From: a virus
DNA: 10,813 bases
Reading direction: 5' to 3' (one strand)
Virus genome (UHGV): UHGV-0281911
A model generated the notes under the pieces. That model saw only the letters and a list, made by a program, of their open reading frames with translations. It did no database searches and was not told where the DNA came from. This document shows, piece by piece, positions 1 through 6,007 of this stretch. The first letter of the stretch is position 1. Every line of letters begins with the position of its first letter. The translations under genes were made by a program, and so were the position numbers.

Positions 1-79
1 CCTTTACAGCCTTCACAAGGCGATTCCACGCTTTTTCCTGTTCTGGCGTCAGGTCGATTAATTCCTGCAAAGTTGCCAT
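1..79 (-). CDS. Hypothetical phage protein, N-terminal fragment (gene runs off the window start)
   Basis: Minus-strand ATG at 79-77 opens MATLQELIDLTPEQEKAWNRLVKAVK... and continues past position 1. It starts 1 nt after the stop (83-81) of the upstream same-strand gene. Confidence 0.4.
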   Translation of the reverse strand, partial: MATLQELIDLTPEQEKAWNRLVKAVK

Positions 80-80
80 A

Positions 81-740
81 TCACTCTCCTTTGATGCGAA
101 TGCCAGCGGCGCGGATAGATTTCCATTGTTCCCACATGCGGTTGAAGTCTGTTCCTGATAAGGTCGCGTTACGGTATCCAGTTTCGGTGCGCAATCCTTC
201 AAGCGTCGATTTGGAAATACAAATTGAATGCATTACCCATGATTCAAACAAATCACGCTCCCGAGCTTCGCAACTTTGTTTACTCATCTCTTCAATGCAT
301 TGTTTAGCTTCTAAATCAGCAATTCTGTCAACTACGGCATCGACGGCATCTGAAAAGCCGAACCAGTTACTCCACTCAGGCCTATCCCCGGTTGCTGCAA
401 AGTACATATCAGCTAAAGCAGACTCAGCATGGTCACGCTCGTTGATGAGTTGCTCTTCGCTTTTCTCCAGTTCTGCTATGCGCTTTTTTGCTGCTTCCAG
501 CTCAACGCGCAGCTTCCCTACCGTTAGCGCAATATCCTCGTTCTCCTGGTCGCGGGATTTGATGTATTGCTGGTTCCTTTCCCGTTCATCCAACAATGCC
601 AGCGCGATATCTGGCGAAAAGTGCTTCATAAAATCGTTAAGCGCATTAATTCGCTGATCGAAAGGCATTACAGGTGCTTCACCAGCAATTTTTGTTTTTT
701 CAGCGATTTCACGAAGCTTTTGATAGTCAATCTTGCTCAC
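81..740 (-). CDS. Phage protein with coiled-coil character, possibly Ead/Ea22-like family
   Basis: 219-aa ORF starting MSKIDYQKLREIAEK, charged heptad-like middle section. The plus-strand ORF over the same span (73..657) is Ser-rich and low-complexity, typical of antisense. Start overlaps the stop of the 737..1174 gene by 4 nt. Family name is from memory only. Confidence 0.6.
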   Translation of the reverse strand: MSKIDYQKLREIAEKTKIAGEAPVMPFDQRINALNDFMKHFSPDIALALLDERERNQQYIKSRDQENEDIALTVGKLRVELEAAKKRIAELEKSEEQLINERDHAESALADMYFAATGDRPEWSNWFGFSDAVDAVVDRIADLEAKQCIEEMSKQSCEARERDLFESWVMHSICISKSTLEGLRTETGYRNATLSGTDFNRMWEQWKSIRAAGIRIKGE

Positions 741-1174
741 TGGCTGCCTCCTTTGCGAAGCTGGGCGGCTAACTCATCACATATGTGCGTCAAAGAACAA
801 AGTTTGATTGATGGATGTTCGCGCATCATCTCTACCCCCTGCGCCCGCACTTCAGACAGGAAAGCATCGGTGGCTGGCATATTTCCTGTTGCCTTCATTG
901 CCTCCAAAATAACCAGAACGCCATCTCGCCCAATCTCCTCGCAGATAACCTCGGTGCTGTCGCCAACAACATCGCAAAATGCCTGAACTGCTTTACGAGC
1001 CAGCGCATTCTCCGCAGCCAGCGCATTAGCACGCACCAGTTGCACTTCCAGTTGCGTTGCCAAATAGCTGATCAGCTTTGCCACACTGCGCATATCAACG
1101 GCACCACATTCTGCTTTCAGTTCCGAAGCCATCTCATGCCCGGCGGCAACTAACCCTTTGATATTACTTTCCAT
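737..1174 (-). CDS. Hypothetical phage protein
   Basis: 145-aa ORF, same strand and tightly packed with neighbours (4-nt overlap with the downstream gene). The antisense ORF 815..1153 looks like low-complexity junk. Confidence 0.65.
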   Translation of the reverse strand: MESNIKGLVAAGHEMASELKAECGAVDMRSVAKLISYLATQLEVQLVRANALAAENALARKAVQAFCDVVGDSTEVICEEIGRDGVLVILEAMKATGNMPATDAFLSEVRAQGVEMMREHPSIKLCSLTHICDELAAQLRKGGSQ

Positions 1175-1235
1175 CTTTACCCTCGCTTATCCACATAACT
1201 TATTGATTACATTGATAACTAAAAAGATCGTCGAT

Positions 1236-1580
1236 TCAGAACTCTTCGATGTTCCAGCCACCACCTGCTTTCTTTGGTTTAACCGTTACCCCGATGATTC
1301 GGAACGGATACTGATCTGCGGCGACTTTGGTTTTCACCCTGGCGTCGTCGGTCCAGAAACCTTTCACTTCGTGCAGTTCCATCTCGCCGGTGGCGAGCAT
1401 CACAGCAAAATCGGGCGTATAGAACGTGTTGTCAGCTAATCGCAGCTTGATACCCTCAAATCGATACCAGGCGATTTCCCCTGCACGTTTACGCAGCTCA
1501 AGGTGCTGGCAATACGCAGATTCTGTTTTGTTCATCTGGCCTGTTTTGAGTCGACCAAGAGCCTGTATCTGTTTTCTCAT
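1236..1580 (-). CDS. Small phage protein, possibly DUF1064-like (putative PD-(D/E)XK-fold)
   Basis: 114-aa ORF. Upstream reads AGGGGTAAATT-ATG (Shine-Dalgarno-like) and a promoter/operator module sits directly 5'. Family assignment is from memory and unverified. Confidence 0.6.
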   Translation of the reverse strand: MRKQIQALGRLKTGQMNKTESAYCQHLELRKRAGEIAWYRFEGIKLRLADNTFYTPDFAVMLATGEMELHEVKGFWTDDARVKTKVAADQYPFRIIGVTVKPKKAGGGWNIEEF

Positions 1581-1583
1581 AAT

Positions 1584-1660
1584 TTACCCCTGAGGTAATT
1601 AAAAACCACATAAGACACGAAATCAATAGAGTTTAGAATATTTTATTACCTCACAGGTAA
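1584..1660 (-). promoter_or_regulatory. Repressor-controlled promoter module: operator (1646-1660), -35 TTGATT (complement of 1621-1626), 17-bp spacer, -10 TTTAAT (complement of 1598-1603), operator (1584-1598)
   Basis: Two TTACC-N5-GGTAA palindromes (TTACCCCTGAGGTAA, TTACCTCACAGGTAA) 62 bp apart centre to centre. Operator to -35 gap is 19 bp and -35 to downstream operator gap is 22 bp, identical to the PL-like module at 4639-4715. Confidence 0.5.
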
Positions 1661-1667
1661 TTATCGA

Positions 1668-1692
1668 GACGTAAAAAAATGCGCTATCGCGC
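1668..1692 (-). terminator. Possible weak intrinsic terminator after the P-like gene
   Basis: On the minus-strand transcript, a short GCGC/GCGC stem with GAUA loop is followed by a run of seven U (plus strand aaaaaaatgcgctatcgcgc). The stem is only 4 bp, so this is tentative. Confidence 0.3.
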
Positions 1693-1697
1693 TGGTA

Positions 1698-2474
1698 TTA
1701 CTTGATAAATCCTGCCGCCTTTCCCCGCCTGTATTCCTCCATCAGCCACTGCGCCGGTGTTATTCCCCCAAGGGTGGCGGCGTTAGGCATGCACCCGAAA
1801 CTTCGCCCTGGTGGATGGTAAACGTCTCTCCCTGTGTCCGGAGGCGTACTCATGGGTTCTGGCTTTGCCTGTATGCTGATCACCGGATCGGGTATCTGCT
1901 GTCCTGAAGCCACCTTTTTCGCCCAATCATCGAGCAGCCTGCGCGCGTGTTTCTCAACCTCAATCTCGCTAAGCTGGCGCTGATACATTGCACGGCGGGT
2001 ATCACATACGACCCAGTACATAACCGGGTGCCGCCACGGGAATCTTTCGGGACCACCAGGATATAAACTTTTTTCCTTGCTGTACCGGTGAAACTCTGCC
2101 ATCACATCGTCAATGGTGACGCCAAGAACCATCTTGCTGTCTTTACACCACTTGATGAATTGCCCTGGCGACGGCCAGAACGGAGACTCACTGGCGCGGG
2201 CGTGGCGCATACCAGCGTTAACCTGTTCCATTGTAGTGATCCCATTCTCCAGAAACGCAAGCATCCATTGCTTACGGAATTCATTAAGTTTGTTCTGCTC
2301 CCTTATGGTCGAAACGCTTGCGGGAAATGCAGCCTGTAACTGGACAAATAGTTCATTGAAAATTCTAGCGACCTGCTCCTTTTTGCCATTGCTGTCACGC
2401 CGCTCTTCATGCACAGCAACACCATGCTCACGTAAGCGATCGTACTCATTGAGAAGTTCTGGAGTTGATTTCAT
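1698..2474 (-). CDS. Replication protein P-like (DnaB helicase loader)
   Basis: 258 aa. The segment QVARIFNELFVQLQAAFPAS...WMLAFLENGITTMEQVNAGMRHAR...PSPGQFIKWC closely parallels lambda P as I remember it (QVAQIINGVFSQLLATFPAS...WVLAFRENGITTMEQVNAGMRVAR...PSPGQFVAWC). Lies directly downstream of the O-like gene. Confidence 0.85.
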   Translation of the reverse strand: MKSTPELLNEYDRLREHGVAVHEERRDSNGKKEQVARIFNELFVQLQAAFPASVSTIREQNKLNEFRKQWMLAFLENGITTMEQVNAGMRHARASESPFWPSPGQFIKWCKDSKMVLGVTIDDVMAEFHRYSKEKSLYPGGPERFPWRHPVMYWVVCDTRRAMYQRQLSEIEVEKHARRLLDDWAKKVASGQQIPDPVISIQAKPEPMSTPPDTGRDVYHPPGRSFGCMPNAATLGGITPAQWLMEEYRRGKAAGFIK

Positions 2475-3270
2475 CCCACACCCCTTCTATCCAGTCAGTG
2501 TTATTCCAGTCAAGCTCATCGCTTTTCCCGGCGTTTTTTGATTTTCCCCTGATATGATTTACGTGCCTGGCGAATTTTTGTTCCCACTGAACCTGCGTGA
2601 ACACTTTGCCCTCAGCCATCCAGTAATCCCGGAATGCAGCAAGTTCAGCAGGTGTAAATTCCGGTTCCGGCAGGGCCGTTCCCCACAGCGCAGCACGCCG
2701 TCGAAAATCCGGCGACGGATGCCAGCCATCGGTCATCGGAAATTTCCCGATGGGTTCACTCAGGCCATCCAGAAATTCAGGTTCAGCCACCTGCAACGGC
2801 ATACCGTTCGCTTCACTGGTCGGAGCACCCTCGCGCACGTGCGCTATGTGTGGGGTTTTATATATATCTTCCTCTTCCTCTGGTAACTCCTTTTGTAACG
2901 CTGTTGGCGTTACTTTTTGCGTTACTCGTTTTCGATGCTCTGCCACTCTTCTATTCGTAAGTGCACGTTTTTTCGATGATTCTCCATTGTGTCGCTCAAA
3001 GTTTGGAAGAATTAGTTTGCCGTCATGATAAGCAAGCCATCCGACGCTAATGAGGGCGTCAGCAAATCCTGTAATAAAAGCGAGTCTATCAAGTACTCCT
3101 TTTGTAACGCTGCCAGCGTTACCGTCTATTGTTTGCTGGTCAGCCCATGCCCATATACGAACCAGCTTTCCAAGAACAGCATCTGGATCAATACCCAGAA
3201 TTTCTGCTATCTGAAAAATTTCAGGTTTATCAGGAGTGATAACTTCAACCTTAATCCAGCTGCTTGCCAT
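2446..3270 (-). CDS. Phage replication initiator/organizer (O-like position) with DnaT-like C-terminal domain
   Basis: C-terminal GKFPMTDGWHPSPDFRRRAALWGTALPEPEFTPAELAAFRDYWMAEGKVFTQVQWEQKFARHV resembles E. coli DnaT C-terminus ([26 protein letters not shown]...[20 protein letters not shown]). Start placed at ATG 3270 (MASSWIKV) because AAGAGGGGAAACCT precedes it; the ORF-track start at 3288 has no Shine-Dalgarno. Confidence 0.8.
   Translation of the reverse strand: MASSWIKVEVITPDKPEIFQIAEILGIDPDAVLGKLVRIWAWADQQTIDGNAGSVTKGVLDRLAFITGFADALISVGWLAYHDGKLILPNFERHNGESSKKRALTNRRVAEHRKRVTQKVTPTALQKELPEEEEDIYKTPHIAHVREGAPTSEANGMPLQVAEPEFLDGLSEPIGKFPMTDGWHPSPDFRRRAALWGTALPEPEFTPAELAAFRDYWMAEGKVFTQVQWEQKFARHVNHIRGKSKNAGKSDELDWNNTDWIEGVWDEINSRTSQ
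2887..2913. repeat. Iteron-like repeat copy 1 (CTCCTTTTGTAACGCTGTTGGCGTTAC) inside the O-like gene
   Basis: Near-identical 27-bp copy at 3096-3122. Contains inverted arms GTAACGC/GCGTTAC, with a further GCGTTAC half-site at 2919-2925. Lies in the acidic linker-coding part of the gene beside an AT-rich stretch (ttttatatatatc). Confidence 0.5.
3096..3122. repeat. Iteron-like repeat copy 2 (CTCCTTTTGTAACGCTGCCAGCGTTAC), containing a perfect 19-bp palindrome GTAACGCTGCCAGCGTTAC
   Basis: Direct repeat of 2887-2913, 209 bp away. The two copies are translated in different reading frames of the same gene (VTPTALQKE versus NAGSVTKG), so conservation is at the DNA level. Confidence 0.5.
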
Positions 3271-3463
3271 AGGTTTCCCCTCTTGCACTCTTTAGTGCAC
3301 AAGCAAATTCATTACGATGGCGGTTGGCGCTATTCATTGCACATTCAACACATGTTCCGTTCAGAACATACCTTTCAGAGAGATGGCCGTGACGGCACCG
3401 CTTTCCTGTGAAATAGCGATTTAACCCGGCTTTTGCGGCCTCCATTCTGGTTACTATCTTCAA
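3251..3463 (-). CDS. Small zinc-ribbon protein (CxxC...CxxC) at the cII-equivalent position
   Basis: 70-aa ORF with CRHGH...CVEC motifs. The candidate TTG start at 3463 is preceded by AAGAGG with an 8-nt spacer; an alternative ATG start lies at 3445. Sits between the tR1-like terminator and the O-like gene. Confidence 0.5.
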   Translation of the reverse strand: MKIVTRMEAAKAGLNRYFTGKRCRHGHLSERYVLNGTCVECAMNSANRHRNEFACALKSARGETYGKQLD

Positions 3464-3541
3464 TTTTTCCGCCTCTTTTTGTTATTGATATTGGATATTT
3501 TGCACAATTGGAAAATTTGATCAACCAGATTTGGTTTTTTA

Positions 3542-3556
3542 TTACCTTTGAGGTAC
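3542..3556. promoter_or_regulatory. Isolated operator-like palindrome TTACCTTTGAGGTAC (one half-site imperfect)
   Basis: Matches the TTACC-N5-GGTAA motif found at the immunity region. Lies immediately promoter-distal to the tR1-like hairpin. Confidence 0.3.
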
Positions 3557-3570
3557 GAATAGATATGAAA

Positions 3571-3590
3571 AGACCGCCGGGTGGCGGTCT
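3571..3590 (-). terminator. tR1-like intrinsic terminator downstream of the cro-like gene
   Basis: Inverted repeat AGACCGCC-GGGT-GGCGGTCT. On the minus-strand transcript the stem is followed by UUUUCAU. Lies 21 nt after the cro-like stop. Confidence 0.45.
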
Positions 3591-3611
3591 ACAGAGGGTT
3601 GTAGCTGGATA

Positions 3612-3842
3612 TCATGAGTAGAAGAAGTATGCCAGTTCTGCTTTTGAGCGCAGCCATTGTCTTGTTTTACAGGCTTTAAAAAGCCCATTCATCAATACTT
3701 TACCTGGCATTTTGCGCTTACCTGTTAAGTGAGTCTGGATATAGTGACTCGTCGTTCCGGCTTCCTGTGCGAAGGCTTCACGCTCATCCGGAGTAAGTGC
3801 AAGCCAGTGCTTTTTGAAATCGAAATGTCCGTTATCGCTCAT
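3612..3842 (-). CDS. Cro-like small HTH regulator
   Basis: 76-aa ORF with an HTH-like segment (LTPDEREAFAQEAGTTSHYIQTHLTGKR). Divergent from the repressor gene across an operator-rich intergenic region and followed by a terminator and replication genes, as cro is in lambda. Confidence 0.7.
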   Translation of the reverse strand: MSDNGHFDFKKHWLALTPDEREAFAQEAGTTSHYIQTHLTGKRKMPGKVLMNGLFKACKTRQWLRSKAELAYFFYS

Positions 3843-3867
3843 AGCTATTGCCTGATATTTATTTCAG

Positions 3868-3941
3868 ATAATAAATATTCACCCATAAGGTAACAAAAAT
3901 CAAGGATAGTTACCTATGAGGTGCATTTACCTGTTGGGTAA
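3868..3941. promoter_or_regulatory. OR-like region: three operator palindromes (3879-3893, 3910-3924, 3927-3941) with a PR-like promoter for cro on the minus strand; a weak PRM-like promoter for the repressor probably lies just downstream (about 3954-3982)
   Basis: Sites TCACCCATAAGGTAA, TTACCTATGAGGTGC, TTACCTGTTGGGTAA. The minus strand reads TTGTTA-17 bp-TATTAT (complement of 3891-3896 and 3868-3873), overlapping the first operator. Plus-strand candidate TTGAAT (3954-3959)-16 bp-TATGAG would give a near-leaderless repressor mRNA. Confidence 0.5.
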
Positions 3942-3996
3942 TATTGCTTTAAATTGAATCATCTACTGATTCATATATGAGGCGATTTTCCAGAAA

Positions 3997-4581
3997 ATGA
4001 AAAGTATCCAGGACGTCCGCAGGCAAAATCTCAACGACTTGATCGACCGTGAATTCAATGGTGTTCAGACGCGGATGGCAGAAAAACTTGGAACTCAGGC
4101 AAATCTGGTAAACCGCTGGGCTCTTGGCAAGAAGGTTATCGGCGACCAGGTTGCGCGAAAAATTGAAGCTGCCGCCAATAAACCCCGTAACTGGCTTGAT
4201 ATCGATCGCTCGCTTTCTCAGGAGGGGTTTCAGCCTGTCGGCCCAAGCGACATTGGTCAGCTGGCGGCTCACAACCTGGAACGCTGGATGAGCGAAAGCC
4301 GCGACCTTTCAACGCAGGGAAAACTACACCGCGCATCCGGCGTCGCCCAGGTGACAATCAGCCGCCTGTTAAACAATGAAGTCAGCGTTTCCATTTCCAC
4401 CCTGGAGAATGTTGCATCCGCATTCGGGCGTCACGGCTATGAATTACTGATTCACCCGCACGACCCTGCGACTATCAACTATGACCGCTCGCGCTACGCA
4501 TTGTTACCCGAAACAGAGAAGGCAAAGATCGAAAGTTACATTGAATTTGTCATCAGCCAGAACGAAAGAAGCAAACAATAA
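3997..4581 (+). CDS. CI-like prophage repressor with two HTH (XRE-like) domains and no recognisable S24 peptidase domain
   Basis: 194 aa. N-terminal HTH QTRMAEKLGTQANLVNRWALGKK and a second HTH-like segment ASGVAQVTISRLLNNEVSVSISTLENVASAFG. I see no Ala-Gly/Ser-Lys LexA-like cleavage module. Divergent from cro-like and followed by a strong terminator. Confidence 0.8.
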   Translation: MKSIQDVRRQNLNDLIDREFNGVQTRMAEKLGTQANLVNRWALGKKVIGDQVARKIEAAANKPRNWLDIDRSLSQEGFQPVGPSDIGQLAAHNLERWMSESRDLSTQGKLHRASGVAQVTISRLLNNEVSVSISTLENVASAFGRHGYELLIHPHDPATINYDRSRYALLPETEKAKIESYIEFVISQNERSKQ

Positions 4582-4601
4582 AACTATAGTTTTCAGTAAG
4601 T

Positions 4602-4628
4602 AAGCCGCCTCATGGCGGCTTTTTTATT
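4602..4628 (+). terminator. Rho-independent terminator after the repressor gene
   Basis: AAGCCGCC-TCAT-GGCGGCTT stem-loop followed by TTTTTATTG, 20 nt after the repressor stop codon. Confidence 0.75.
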
Positions 4629-4638
4629 GCCAACAAGA

Positions 4639-4715
4639 TTACCTTATGGGTAATTTTTTTAACTCATATCTATTGACATCAAACCAAATACGCATAATTA
4701 TTACCTCAACGGTAA
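4639..4715 (+). promoter_or_regulatory. PL-like early promoter module: operator (4639-4653), -35 TTGACA (4673-4678), -10 AATTAT (4696-4701), operator (4701-4715)
   Basis: Perfect -35 hexamer with 17-bp spacing to an A/T-rich -10, flanked by TTACCTTATGGGTAA and TTACCTCAACGGTAA, which are 62 bp apart. Drives the plus-strand recombination operon. Confidence 0.55.
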
Positions 4716-4734
4716 CAGACCGAGGTAACAAGTT

Positions 4735-4887
4735 ATGCAGTGGAAAATCATCAACGGTTGGTACTGCGTTACTGCATGCGGATTCATGAGCTGGAAGTTC
4801 CGCACCTTACAGGAAGGCATTAAGTGGGCTTTCGTCAGCAAAGAAGCTCGCGATGTGGCCAACGATAACGAGATATGGGAGGGCTGA
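4735..4887 (+). CDS. Small hypothetical protein (50 aa), first ORF of the PL-like operon; not in the supplied ORF track
   Basis: ATG at 4735 preceded by GAGGTAACAAGTT. Translates MQWKIINGWYCVTACGFMSWKFRTLQEGIKWAFVSKEARDVANDNEIWEG and ends 2 nt before the next gene. Confidence 0.4.
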   Translation: MQWKIINGWYCVTACGFMSWKFRTLQEGIKWAFVSKEARDVANDNEIWEG

Positions 4888-4889
4888 TA

Positions 4890-5189
4890 ATGAACGTTAA
4901 TCAGCAGAAAAATCTTCAAAAAATCATGCTGGCATTCGACAAGGACTACCGCCTGTCAGAACAGCTATATGACCGACAAGTTGAACTGATTGAGAGCATC
5001 CGACTTCATCAACTGTCCTCAACTTTCGACGTTGTAACAGGCAAAGGCGTTCGTCAGGAAGTGCTGGAGGCTGCTAAAGACAGCCCTGAGTTCGAAGAAC
5101 TGATGGATTCCTACCGGCGCGAGGCAATGGCAATTATAGCGCGCTGGGATCTGGCGGATCAGCTTGATGGGCAGAGGGAAGCGGCATGA
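4890..5189 (+). CDS. Hypothetical phage early protein (99 aa)
   Basis: ATG at 4890 preceded by GGGAGGG. The stop overlaps the start of the exonuclease gene (ATGA at 5186-5189), suggesting translational coupling. Confidence 0.6.
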   Translation: MNVNQQKNLQKIMLAFDKDYRLSEQLYDRQVELIESIRLHQLSSTFDVVTGKGVRQEVLEAAKDSPEFEELMDSYRREAMAIIARWDLADQLDGQREAA

Positions 5190-6007
5190 AACCGGGAATT
5201 TATTTCGACATCAGCAACGAAGACTACCACGCCGGTGACGGCGTGAGTAAGTCGCAACTGGACATGGTTGCCAAGAATCCGGCGCTTCTTAAATGGGTTC
5301 AGGCAGCACCAGAAGACGAAGAGAAAAAGTCTGCACTGGATATGGGAACCGCATTGCACTGTCTGCTTCTGGAGCCTGGAGAATTCGACAAACGCTTCAT
5401 TGTTTCACCGAAGTTCGATCGTCGGACGAAACAAGGTAAAGCTGACGAAGAAGCATTTCTTCGTGATGTAGCGGATATGGGGATTACGGTACTTGATGCC
5501 GAGCAGTGGCGGAAACTGGAGCTGATGCGTGATAGCGCAATGGCTCACCCGGCGGCACGCTGGATGCTGGAAGCACCTGGTTACTGCGAAGCATCAATGT
5601 ACTGGAACGATGAAGAGACGGGTGAGTTGTGCCGAATTCGTCCAGACAAATGGCTGAACGAGCACAACGTGATCGTCGACGTGAAAAAGGTTGCAGATAT
5701 GGACCGTTTTGCACGTCACATCGAGGAATTCCGCTACCACGTGCAGGACGCAATGTACCGCGAAGGCGCAATGAGGATTACTGGTCAGCCGCATGGTTTT
5801 TTCTTTCTTGCCGTGAGCGAAAGCATTGATTGTGGTCGGTATCCGGTACGCGTGTTCGGGCTGGATGCGCCGGATGTCGATGCCGGGCACGCTCTGTTCC
5901 GCCGGGATCTGAATACCTATCACGAATGCCGCATCAGCGATGAATGGGGCGGCGTGGAAATTATTAAACGCCCTGAGTGGGCACGCAAACAGGATATGTA
6001 CGTATGA
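5186..6007 (+). CDS. PD-(D/E)XK exonuclease, RecE (exonuclease VIII) C-terminal-domain-like
   Basis: 273 aa. Candidate catalytic motifs IRPDKW and IVDVKKV. Preceded by GAGGGAAG and translationally coupled to the downstream annealase gene (ATGA at 6004-6007). Family is from memory (DUF3799 / PDDEXK-like). Confidence 0.7.
   Translation: MKPGIYFDISNEDYHAGDGVSKSQLDMVAKNPALLKWVQAAPEDEEKKSALDMGTALHCLLLEPGEFDKRFIVSPKFDRRTKQGKADEEAFLRDVADMGITVLDAEQWRKLELMRDSAMAHPAARWMLEAPGYCEASMYWNDEETGELCRIRPDKWLNEHNVIVDVKKVADMDRFARHIEEFRYHVQDAMYREGAMRITGQPHGFFFLAVSESIDCGRYPVRVFGLDAPDVDAGHALFRRDLNTYHECRISDEWGGVEIIKRPEWARKQDMYV

Follow-up and report, generated by a model that had tools for sequence, protein, structure and literature searches.

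The locus examined here is a 117-bp intergenic region, read on the minus strand of a 10,813-nt stretch of the virus genome UHGV-0281911; this whole stretch is called the window below. Upstream of the region ends a lambda-P-like replication gene, the last gene of its unit, and downstream a DUF1064 gene begins, which is followed by a second ORF and by an Ead/Ea22-like gene (Table 1). From the stop codon of the P-like gene onward, the minus strand carries a terminator-like hairpin, an A with a run of seven T, the distal operator TTACCTGTGAGGTAA, the stretch TAAAATATTCTAAACT, the segment CTATTGATT that holds the −35 hexamer TTGATT, the −10 hexamer TTTAAT, the proximal operator TTACCTCAGGGGTAA, the trinucleotide ATT and finally the ATG at 1580. 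The part from one operator to the other (1584-1660) is referred to as the module.

Table 1. Positions of the features discussed in the text, in window coordinates
Feature	Position	Strand	Remarks
Ead/Ea22-like gene	740-81	-	Pfam Ead_Ea22, E 1.4e-20
ORF, second in downstream block	1174-737	-	follows the DUF1064 gene
DUF1064 gene, first of downstream block	1236-1580	-	Pfam DUF1064, E 3.7e-07; start within 3 nt of the module
Proximal operator	1584-1598		palindrome; perfect match to the Rep operator consensus
Promoter candidate P-b (PL-like)	1598-1626	-	TTGATT (1626-1621), 17 bp, TTTAAT (1603-1598); offsets same as PL; expected start ~1591-1590, inside the proximal operator
Promoter candidate P-a (upstream alternative)	1640-1667	-	TCGATA (1667-1662), 16 bp (essentially the distal operator), TAAAAT (1645-1640)
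Distal operator	1646-1660		palindrome; perfect match to the Rep operator consensus
Terminator-like hairpin	1681-1692	-	GCGC-GATA-GCGC, 3' of the P-like stop (1700-1698); then A and T7 (1679-1673)
Lambda-P-like replication gene, last in upstream unit	1698-2474	-	Pfam Phage_lambda_P, E 1.7e-55
cro-like gene	3842-3612	-	divergent from the repressor gene
PR	3896-3868	-	TTGTTA-17-TATTAT; overlapped by operator 3879-3893
OR operators	3927-3941; 3910-3924; 3879-3893		perfect; 2 mismatches; 1 mismatch; between cro-like gene and repressor gene
Repressor gene rep	3997-4581	+	full-length match to SPC32H Rep (PDB 5d50), E 4.5e-42; HTH_3 domain; presumed operator binder
rep terminator	4602-4621		folds at -15.4 kcal/mol
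PL/OL module	4639-4715	+	operator 4639-4653, TTGACA 4673-4678, AATTAT 4696-4701, operator 4701-4715; best promoter match in the window by consensus scan; PWM rank 1

The hairpin has a 4-bp GC stem, which is below the 5-pair minimum of our scan; as RNA it folds at -7.4 kcal/mol (z -1.56) and is followed by U7. Its pattern, GCGC-N4-GCGC-A/G-T7-AC, is kept in all relatives with a variable loop, and the phiV10 record has a putative rho-independent terminator annotated at the homologous position. Because the stem comprises only 4 bp, read-through from PR past the hairpin may be substantial. Farther upstream, the DnaT-like gene contains two perfect 19-bp palindromes GTAACGC-N5-GCGTTAC (2895-2913 and 3104-3122), 209 bp apart and preceded by a common 5' flank, ACTCCTTTTGTAACGCTG; these could be origin iterons, comparable with the ori that lambda has within O, or else a repeat internal to the coding sequence.

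The sequence-only reading of this DNA had described the module as having the same geometry as the PL-like module at 4639-4715, and this description is borne out. In both modules an operator is followed by 19 bp, a −35 hexamer, 17 bp, and a −10 hexamer that has one base in common with the second operator; all element distances are identical, including the 62 bp from the start of one operator to the start of the other. The two modules are mutually inverted, ours being on the minus strand and PL/OL on the plus strand. Of the two short stretches reported as shared, ATTACCTCA was found again in the alignment of the modules, whereas the one in the −35 region reads TCTATTGA (8 nt) rather than CTCTATTGA. 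Besides the operators and CTATTGA, the alignment gave no similarity between the two modules.

Both operators of the module, as well as both operators of PL/OL, are perfect copies of the palindrome TTACC-N5-GGTAA, and the only other perfect copy in the window, the fifth, is the one at 3927-3941. When one mismatch is allowed, seven matches are present in the window where 0.19 are expected, and seven were reached in none of 200 shuffles; allowing two mismatches gives 14 matches against 2.9 expected. The cro-like gene and the repressor gene are divergent, so that OR is expected between them, and three of the matches lie there. Since the motif occupies this position, TTACC-N5-GGTAA is assigned as the operator of the element's own repressor, that is, of the adjacent Rep, a homologue of SPC32H Rep. 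This sequence-based assignment is in line with the presence of the cognate rep gene in the same element, of the motif at both OR and OL, and of the homologous site in relatives that encode Rep. The 3' half of the proximal operator supplies, at the same time, the Shine–Dalgarno sequence GGGGT of the DUF1064 gene. On the plus strand, TTTACC-18-TAAATT (3926-3955; rank 13 by promoter PWM) overlaps the perfect OR operator and points to rep, which makes it a candidate for the maintenance promoter of the repressor gene.

SPC32H Rep is a tetramer when it binds DNA, and the antirepressor Ant splits this tetramer (PMC9638917). At its C-terminus, SPC32H Rep has a tetramerisation domain similar to those found in DNA-looping regulators, and its two pairs of adjacent dimerisation domains (MDDs) are ~100 Å apart, according to a 2023 paper which also states that the structural mechanism of Rep repression 'has not been extensively characterized' (PMC9986798). 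Identity between Rep of the window and that of epsilon15/SPC32H is only ~42%, and the half-sites are nonetheless identical. Heteroimmune relatives, in which the operators of the module would co-vary with those at OR and OL, were looked for and not found, as the TTACC half-site accompanies every Rep homologue examined (phage records down to 42% identity, and at 54-61% the prophages of Serratia and Pseudescherichia). In the comparison of the window with epsilon15/SPC32H, the N-terminal ~70 residues of Rep are far better conserved than the remainder. Immunity specificity may be set by the pairing of Ant with Rep rather than by DNA recognition.

By blastn, bases 1-4800 of the window are ~97% identical over up to 90% of their length to phiV10, TL-2011b, vB_EcoP_ZX5 and HEMP4, and the annotated records opened among these relatives, e.g. 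phiV10, are classed as Uetakevirus, epsilon15-like podoviruses. Judged from this similarity, the element is a temperate epsilon15/phiV10-type Uetakevirus, a prophage of E. coli. It is not a lambdoid phage, and has only individual genes (P-like, Ead/Ea22-like) in common with that group. The earlier remark that a promoter at this place would be unusual for a lambdoid layout is thus inapplicable, and the module is present at the same junction in every Rep-encoding phage record examined. The GenBank record of epsilon15 lists seven 16-17-bp 'repressor' binding sites of the form TTACC-N5-GGTAA plus flanking base, and one of them, the protein_bind feature at 35906-35922, is the homologue of our distal operator. 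The proximal site is found there by scan as well, and the record marks only the distal one and no promoter; the annotation also omits three matches in the OR region (two perfect, one with 1 mismatch). Hence, a repressor site at this junction is already known at the level of annotation. In the records and papers searched, the primary epsilon15 and SPC32H papers aside, no description was found of a PL-like promoter with paired operators at the junction; the vB_EcoP_ZX5 paper mentions four predicted promoters, the positions of which are absent from its text. The module was detected in 530 of 5,426 complete E. coli genomes (about 10%), and poultry isolates of E. coli carry the sequence at 100% identity. 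Within its own genus it is ordinary: it is the rule there, is partly annotated and is very common.

Ten relatives retrieved by blastn (phiV10, O157 typing phage 9, epsilon15, SPC32H, PAT1, Tyrion, BUCT554, Kp4865-1 and two Klebsiella prophages) all have two perfect operators at the 62-bp spacing, immediately 5' of whichever gene comes first behind the replication genes, and in all of them an ATG stands 3-5 nt downstream of the proximal operator. Their alignment shows no variation in any of the 20 half-site columns and variation in each of the 10 N5 columns. A pattern scan of IMG/VR returned 186 operator pairs, 78 of them (68 unique) belonging to this module and 87 (79 unique) to OL; invariance of the half-sites in this set is partly by construction, as the search pattern required it. 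Among the copies with the 77-bp geometry (65 unique for the module, 55 unique for OL), CTATTGA is invariant and has the same offset in both, while most spacer bases vary. The rule by which pairs were oriented biases this result only weakly, T[AT]TTGA being present in exactly one orientation in 175 of the 186 pairs. The −35 hexamers are TTGATT, TTGAAA or TTGATA in the module and TTGACA or TTGACT in OL. At the 17-bp spacer, the −10 position reads TTTAAT, TTAAAT or ATAAAT in the module, with an A at position 2 in 0 of 65 relatives, and AATTAT, AATCAT or GATTAT in OL. This pattern of conservation, as read from the alignments, indicates that the operators and the −35 are under selection.

Presence of the module follows that of the repressor. 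The 36 module-bearing records of the phage collection are the same phages as the 36 that encode Rep; O157 typing phage 9 looked like a case of orphan operators, which was discarded because its record is merely permuted and carries Rep at 1306-1887. Four distant Rep prophages (54-61% identity) were retrieved through the protein, and the site is present in 4 of 4. The Pseudocitrobacter prophage has the 62-bp version. In the other three, from Pseudescherichia, Serratia and one metagenomic contig, the module is compact: a T-run is followed by TTGCAA or TTGACA and, after 17 bp, by AATTAT or AATGAT; one operator lies within this spacer, and a second, 18 bp from the first, is overlapped by the downstream hexamer, after which comes the start codon (2343-2375, 4285-4317 and 4642-4674 in the respective records). 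The compact version is a near-consensus promoter, so that promoters gated by Rep seem, at this junction, to be a trait of the family that comes in two architectures.

Two candidate promoters of the module were compared (P-a and P-b in Table 1). In P-b, the one with the layout of PL, TTGATT agrees with TTGACA at 4 of 6 positions and the spacer is 17 bp, and it is not called by the consensus scan because TTTAAT is without an A at position 2 (the −11 A). The only candidate within the module that the scan calls is P-a, which matches the consensus at 9 of 12 positions. Of a −10 hexamer one expects an A in position 2 and a T in position 6; TTTAAT has T in position 2, whereas TAAAAT of P-a conforms, paired with the weaker −35 TCGATA. 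By a rough promoter PWM, PL ranks 1, PR 2, P-a 6 and P-b 18 of 64,668 in the window. Consensus matches as such are not in excess, 6 being found in 1-5200 against 6.9 in shuffles. The −10 of P-b can also be read as TTAATT with an 18-bp spacer; at this spacing TAAATT is found in about half of the family, and TTAATT in the rest, which includes the window. Absence of the A at position 2 from the window and from 65 relatives means that either P-b is weak or another hexamer is in use. For P-a, the −10 (yAAAAT) is kept across relatives and the −35 varies (CAGTGA in epsilon15, AGCACA in BUCT554). Like the compact version in the distant prophages, P-a has a T-run, then the −35, an operator within the spacer and the −10, which raises its standing.

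Some further promoter-like or structured elements were seen around these sites. Upstream of PL and directly after the rep terminator, TTGCCA-18-TAATTT (4627-4656, plus strand; PWM rank 10) has the distal operator of OL in its spacer and so mirrors P-a; its conservation is confined to the phiV10/Tyrion/BUCT554 subgroup. An antisense match on the plus strand, AAGACA-16-TAGAAT (1612-1639), is probably due to chance, its hexamers being in non-conserved columns. As RNA, the minus strand of 1575-1665 would fold at -23.7 kcal/mol (z -3.5) with the two operators paired and the ribosome-binding site of the DUF1064 gene buried. We rejected a reading of the module at the RNA level, in that the helix is probably a by-product of the shared half-sites and the complementarity of the N5 stretches is, by eye, not kept in phiV10 and epsilon15; a search of Rfam families gave zero matches in the window.

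Taken together, the geometry of PL/OL, the consensus operators, the hairpin and the genus-wide conservation make a repressor-controlled promoter of its own the best reading of the module, and we consider it probable that a Rep-repressed promoter of the sigma-70 type serves the DUF1064/Ea22 block. To this extent the direct control by the repressor proposed earlier is supported, and a weak point of that proposal is the −10 it named, which has no A at position 2. Under the preferred reading, the hairpin with T7 would end, or at least attenuate, the PR-driven transcript of the replication genes, and the promoter between the operators would restart transcription into the block of DUF1064, Eae-like and Ead/Ea22-like genes. 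In a lysogen both operators would be occupied by Rep, the distal one upstream of the −35 with its centre ~62 bp from the expected start, and the proximal one over the −10 and the start site. The distance of 62 bp from centre to centre corresponds to ~6 helical turns and places the operators on the same face of the DNA, so one Rep tetramer could bridge them, with the −35 region looped out, as it might at PL; a loop of 62 bp needs strong bending of the DNA. Upon induction, Ant would break the Rep tetramers and the promoter would fire along with PL and PR, with no need of read-through. What the analysis establishes is the operators, their geometry and conservation, their co-occurrence with Rep and the promoter-like hexamers; we infer in this scheme the binding of Rep at both sites, the looping, the choice of −10/−35 pair and the efficiency of the terminator.

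Which of the two candidates would be active is a question within the preferred reading. Suppose that a promoter is present: it is then possible, though less likely than not, that P-a is the active one, with a start at ~1633 and the PL-like hexamers as a relic or a second, minor promoter; its spacer would contain the distal operator, with the proximal operator acting at ~+35 to +50. P-a scores higher than P-b in the window, its −10 stands right behind the distal operator in all relatives, it resembles the compact promoter of distant relatives, and its 53-nt leader would be normal and have the ribosome-binding site intact. By comparison, a start at ~1591 gives a leader of 11 nt with the Shine–Dalgarno sequence at its very 5' end. 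Set against P-a are its non-conserved −35 and the geometry shared with PL, which favours the downstream promoter, and it leaves the invariant CTATTGA unexplained. That same CTATTGA, fixed in offset in both the module and PL while the adjacent spacer varies, is also a difficulty for the main rival view, that the operators have no promoter at all. They would then be auxiliary sites that raise local Rep, loop to OR (2.3 kb) or OL (3.05 kb) or act as a roadblock, and the block would be expressed by read-through from PR only. This is what the poor PL-like −10 in window and family, the short hairpin, the tetrameric state of Rep with its fold related to loop-forming regulators, and the operator matches dispersed through the genomes of phiV10 and epsilon15, of which some stand alone, might lead one to expect. 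We think it unlikely, as in distant relatives this very junction holds a near-consensus promoter together with operators, the conserved hairpin and T7 directly upstream suit the boundary of a unit, and two promoter-like sites among the top 20 overlap the operators.

Two other explanations were weighed. The AT-rich segment between the operators might be part of a replication origin or some other Rep-regulated DNA site, given that GC is ~33% across 1550-1700 and that the DnaT-like and P-like genes adjoin. This is very improbable: near the module no repeats besides the operators, and no iterons, were found; the same geometry recurs at PL, far from the replication genes; and the module stays in place when the upstream replication gene is replaced by one of an unrelated type. 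Least probable, and to us hardly credible, is that the module is a functionless scar left by a recent duplication or recombination of PL, which the PL-identical geometry and the short common stretches would suggest at first sight. The module is seen at the same junction in relatives from all host genera sampled with this repressor family (Escherichia, Salmonella, Klebsiella, Enterobacter and Pseudocitrobacter), with Rep down to 42% identity; constraint is selective and falls on the operators and the −35; and the modules are dissimilar outside the functional elements, so that any duplication must be ancient.

Exchange of genes around the module is evident, and the module itself persists. The C-terminus of the upstream replication gene is of four types and the downstream gene of two (DUF1064 or RuvC), and all 8 of the 8 combinations occur; when epsilon15-type phages are compared with the window by blastn, hardly more than the module aligns (query 79-193 of 1500-1760). 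We regard the module, on these comparisons, as ancestral in the genus and as an old conserved linker between exchangeable cassettes, not a recent product of recombination. Since PL/OL and the module share just the operators and CTATTGA, any duplication linking them would predate the genus. Modular recombination, which had been suggested as the source of the module, is accordingly wrong as its origin; what remains of the suggestion is a conserved cassette junction with eight combinations of flanks.

The nearest known system is the Rep/Ant system of Uetakevirus (epsilon15, SPC32H/SPN1S, phiV10), of which the window has the Rep homologue, the operator core and the gene order. With PL/OL and PR/OR of lambda it shares an immunity repressor acting on palindromic operators that overlap early promoters, several of which are released together at induction. 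In lambda the operators lie side by side, whereas those of the module flank the promoter 62 bp apart. The lambda nin region is reached through N antitermination, and we know of no CI-controlled promoter downstream of P in that phage. The lac O1-O3 loop measures 92 bp and the gal OE-OI loop 113 bp; the likeness to these lies in a pair of in-phase operators, of which one covers the start site and the other is farther upstream, and in a repressor that, as a tetramer, can bridge both. The 62-bp loop of the module would be shorter, bridging would have to be supposed, and the protein family is unrelated. Phage repressors with many sites include gp71 of L5 with its stoperators, CI of coliphage 186 with the flanking sites FL and FR, and the N15 repressor with CB sites at several loci, and the resemblance is that one repressor has sites at many places of a genome. 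L5 stoperators are asymmetric, lie within transcribed regions and stop elongation, whereas the Rep sites are palindromic and stand at the heads of transcription units. The mode of release differs from that of lambda too: Rep is a tetramer inactivated by an antirepressor, according to the papers cited, and the lambda repressor is inactivated by RecA-stimulated self-cleavage.

Scanning the complete phiV10 and epsilon15 genomes gave operator matches at OL, at OR, at this module and after the cro terminator, and also before the terminase gene (two, 18 bp apart), before gp3/portal, in the gap between gp19 and the tailspike gene, and before the holin operon and the integrase gene. In the window, the minus strand after the cro-like gene has a strong terminator (3590-3571), a degenerate operator (3556-3542, 1 mismatch) and TTGATC-16-CAAAAT (3524-3497; PWM rank 20), and the same order of elements, GGTTGATC and GCAAAAT included, is kept in nine relatives; this may be one more Rep-linked promoter, placed in front of the replication genes. 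We put forward tentatively, at somewhat less than even weight, a general picture in which a single tetrameric repressor directly gates nearly every transcription unit of epsilon15-type phages. Instead of one antiterminated operon, the rightward early region would consist of terminator-operator-promoter cassettes in series, and the module, in this picture an ancient paralogue of PL, would have a fixed in-phase 62-bp pair suited to a micro-loop closed by one tetramer and would act as a conserved linker in swaps of replication and resolvase cassettes.

For the window alone the module matters little, being one more copy of what is present in every known phage with this repressor family. The picture at the level of the family is not surprising and merits a specialist look. 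It provides a testable geometry for Rep repression, with two promoters per genome each enclosed by a pair of in-phase operators at a distance of 62 bp, and it suggests that the early genes are run by serial repressor-gated promoters and not by an antitermination cascade as in lambda. Moreover, the module marks a conserved intergenic linker at which gene cassettes are exchanged.
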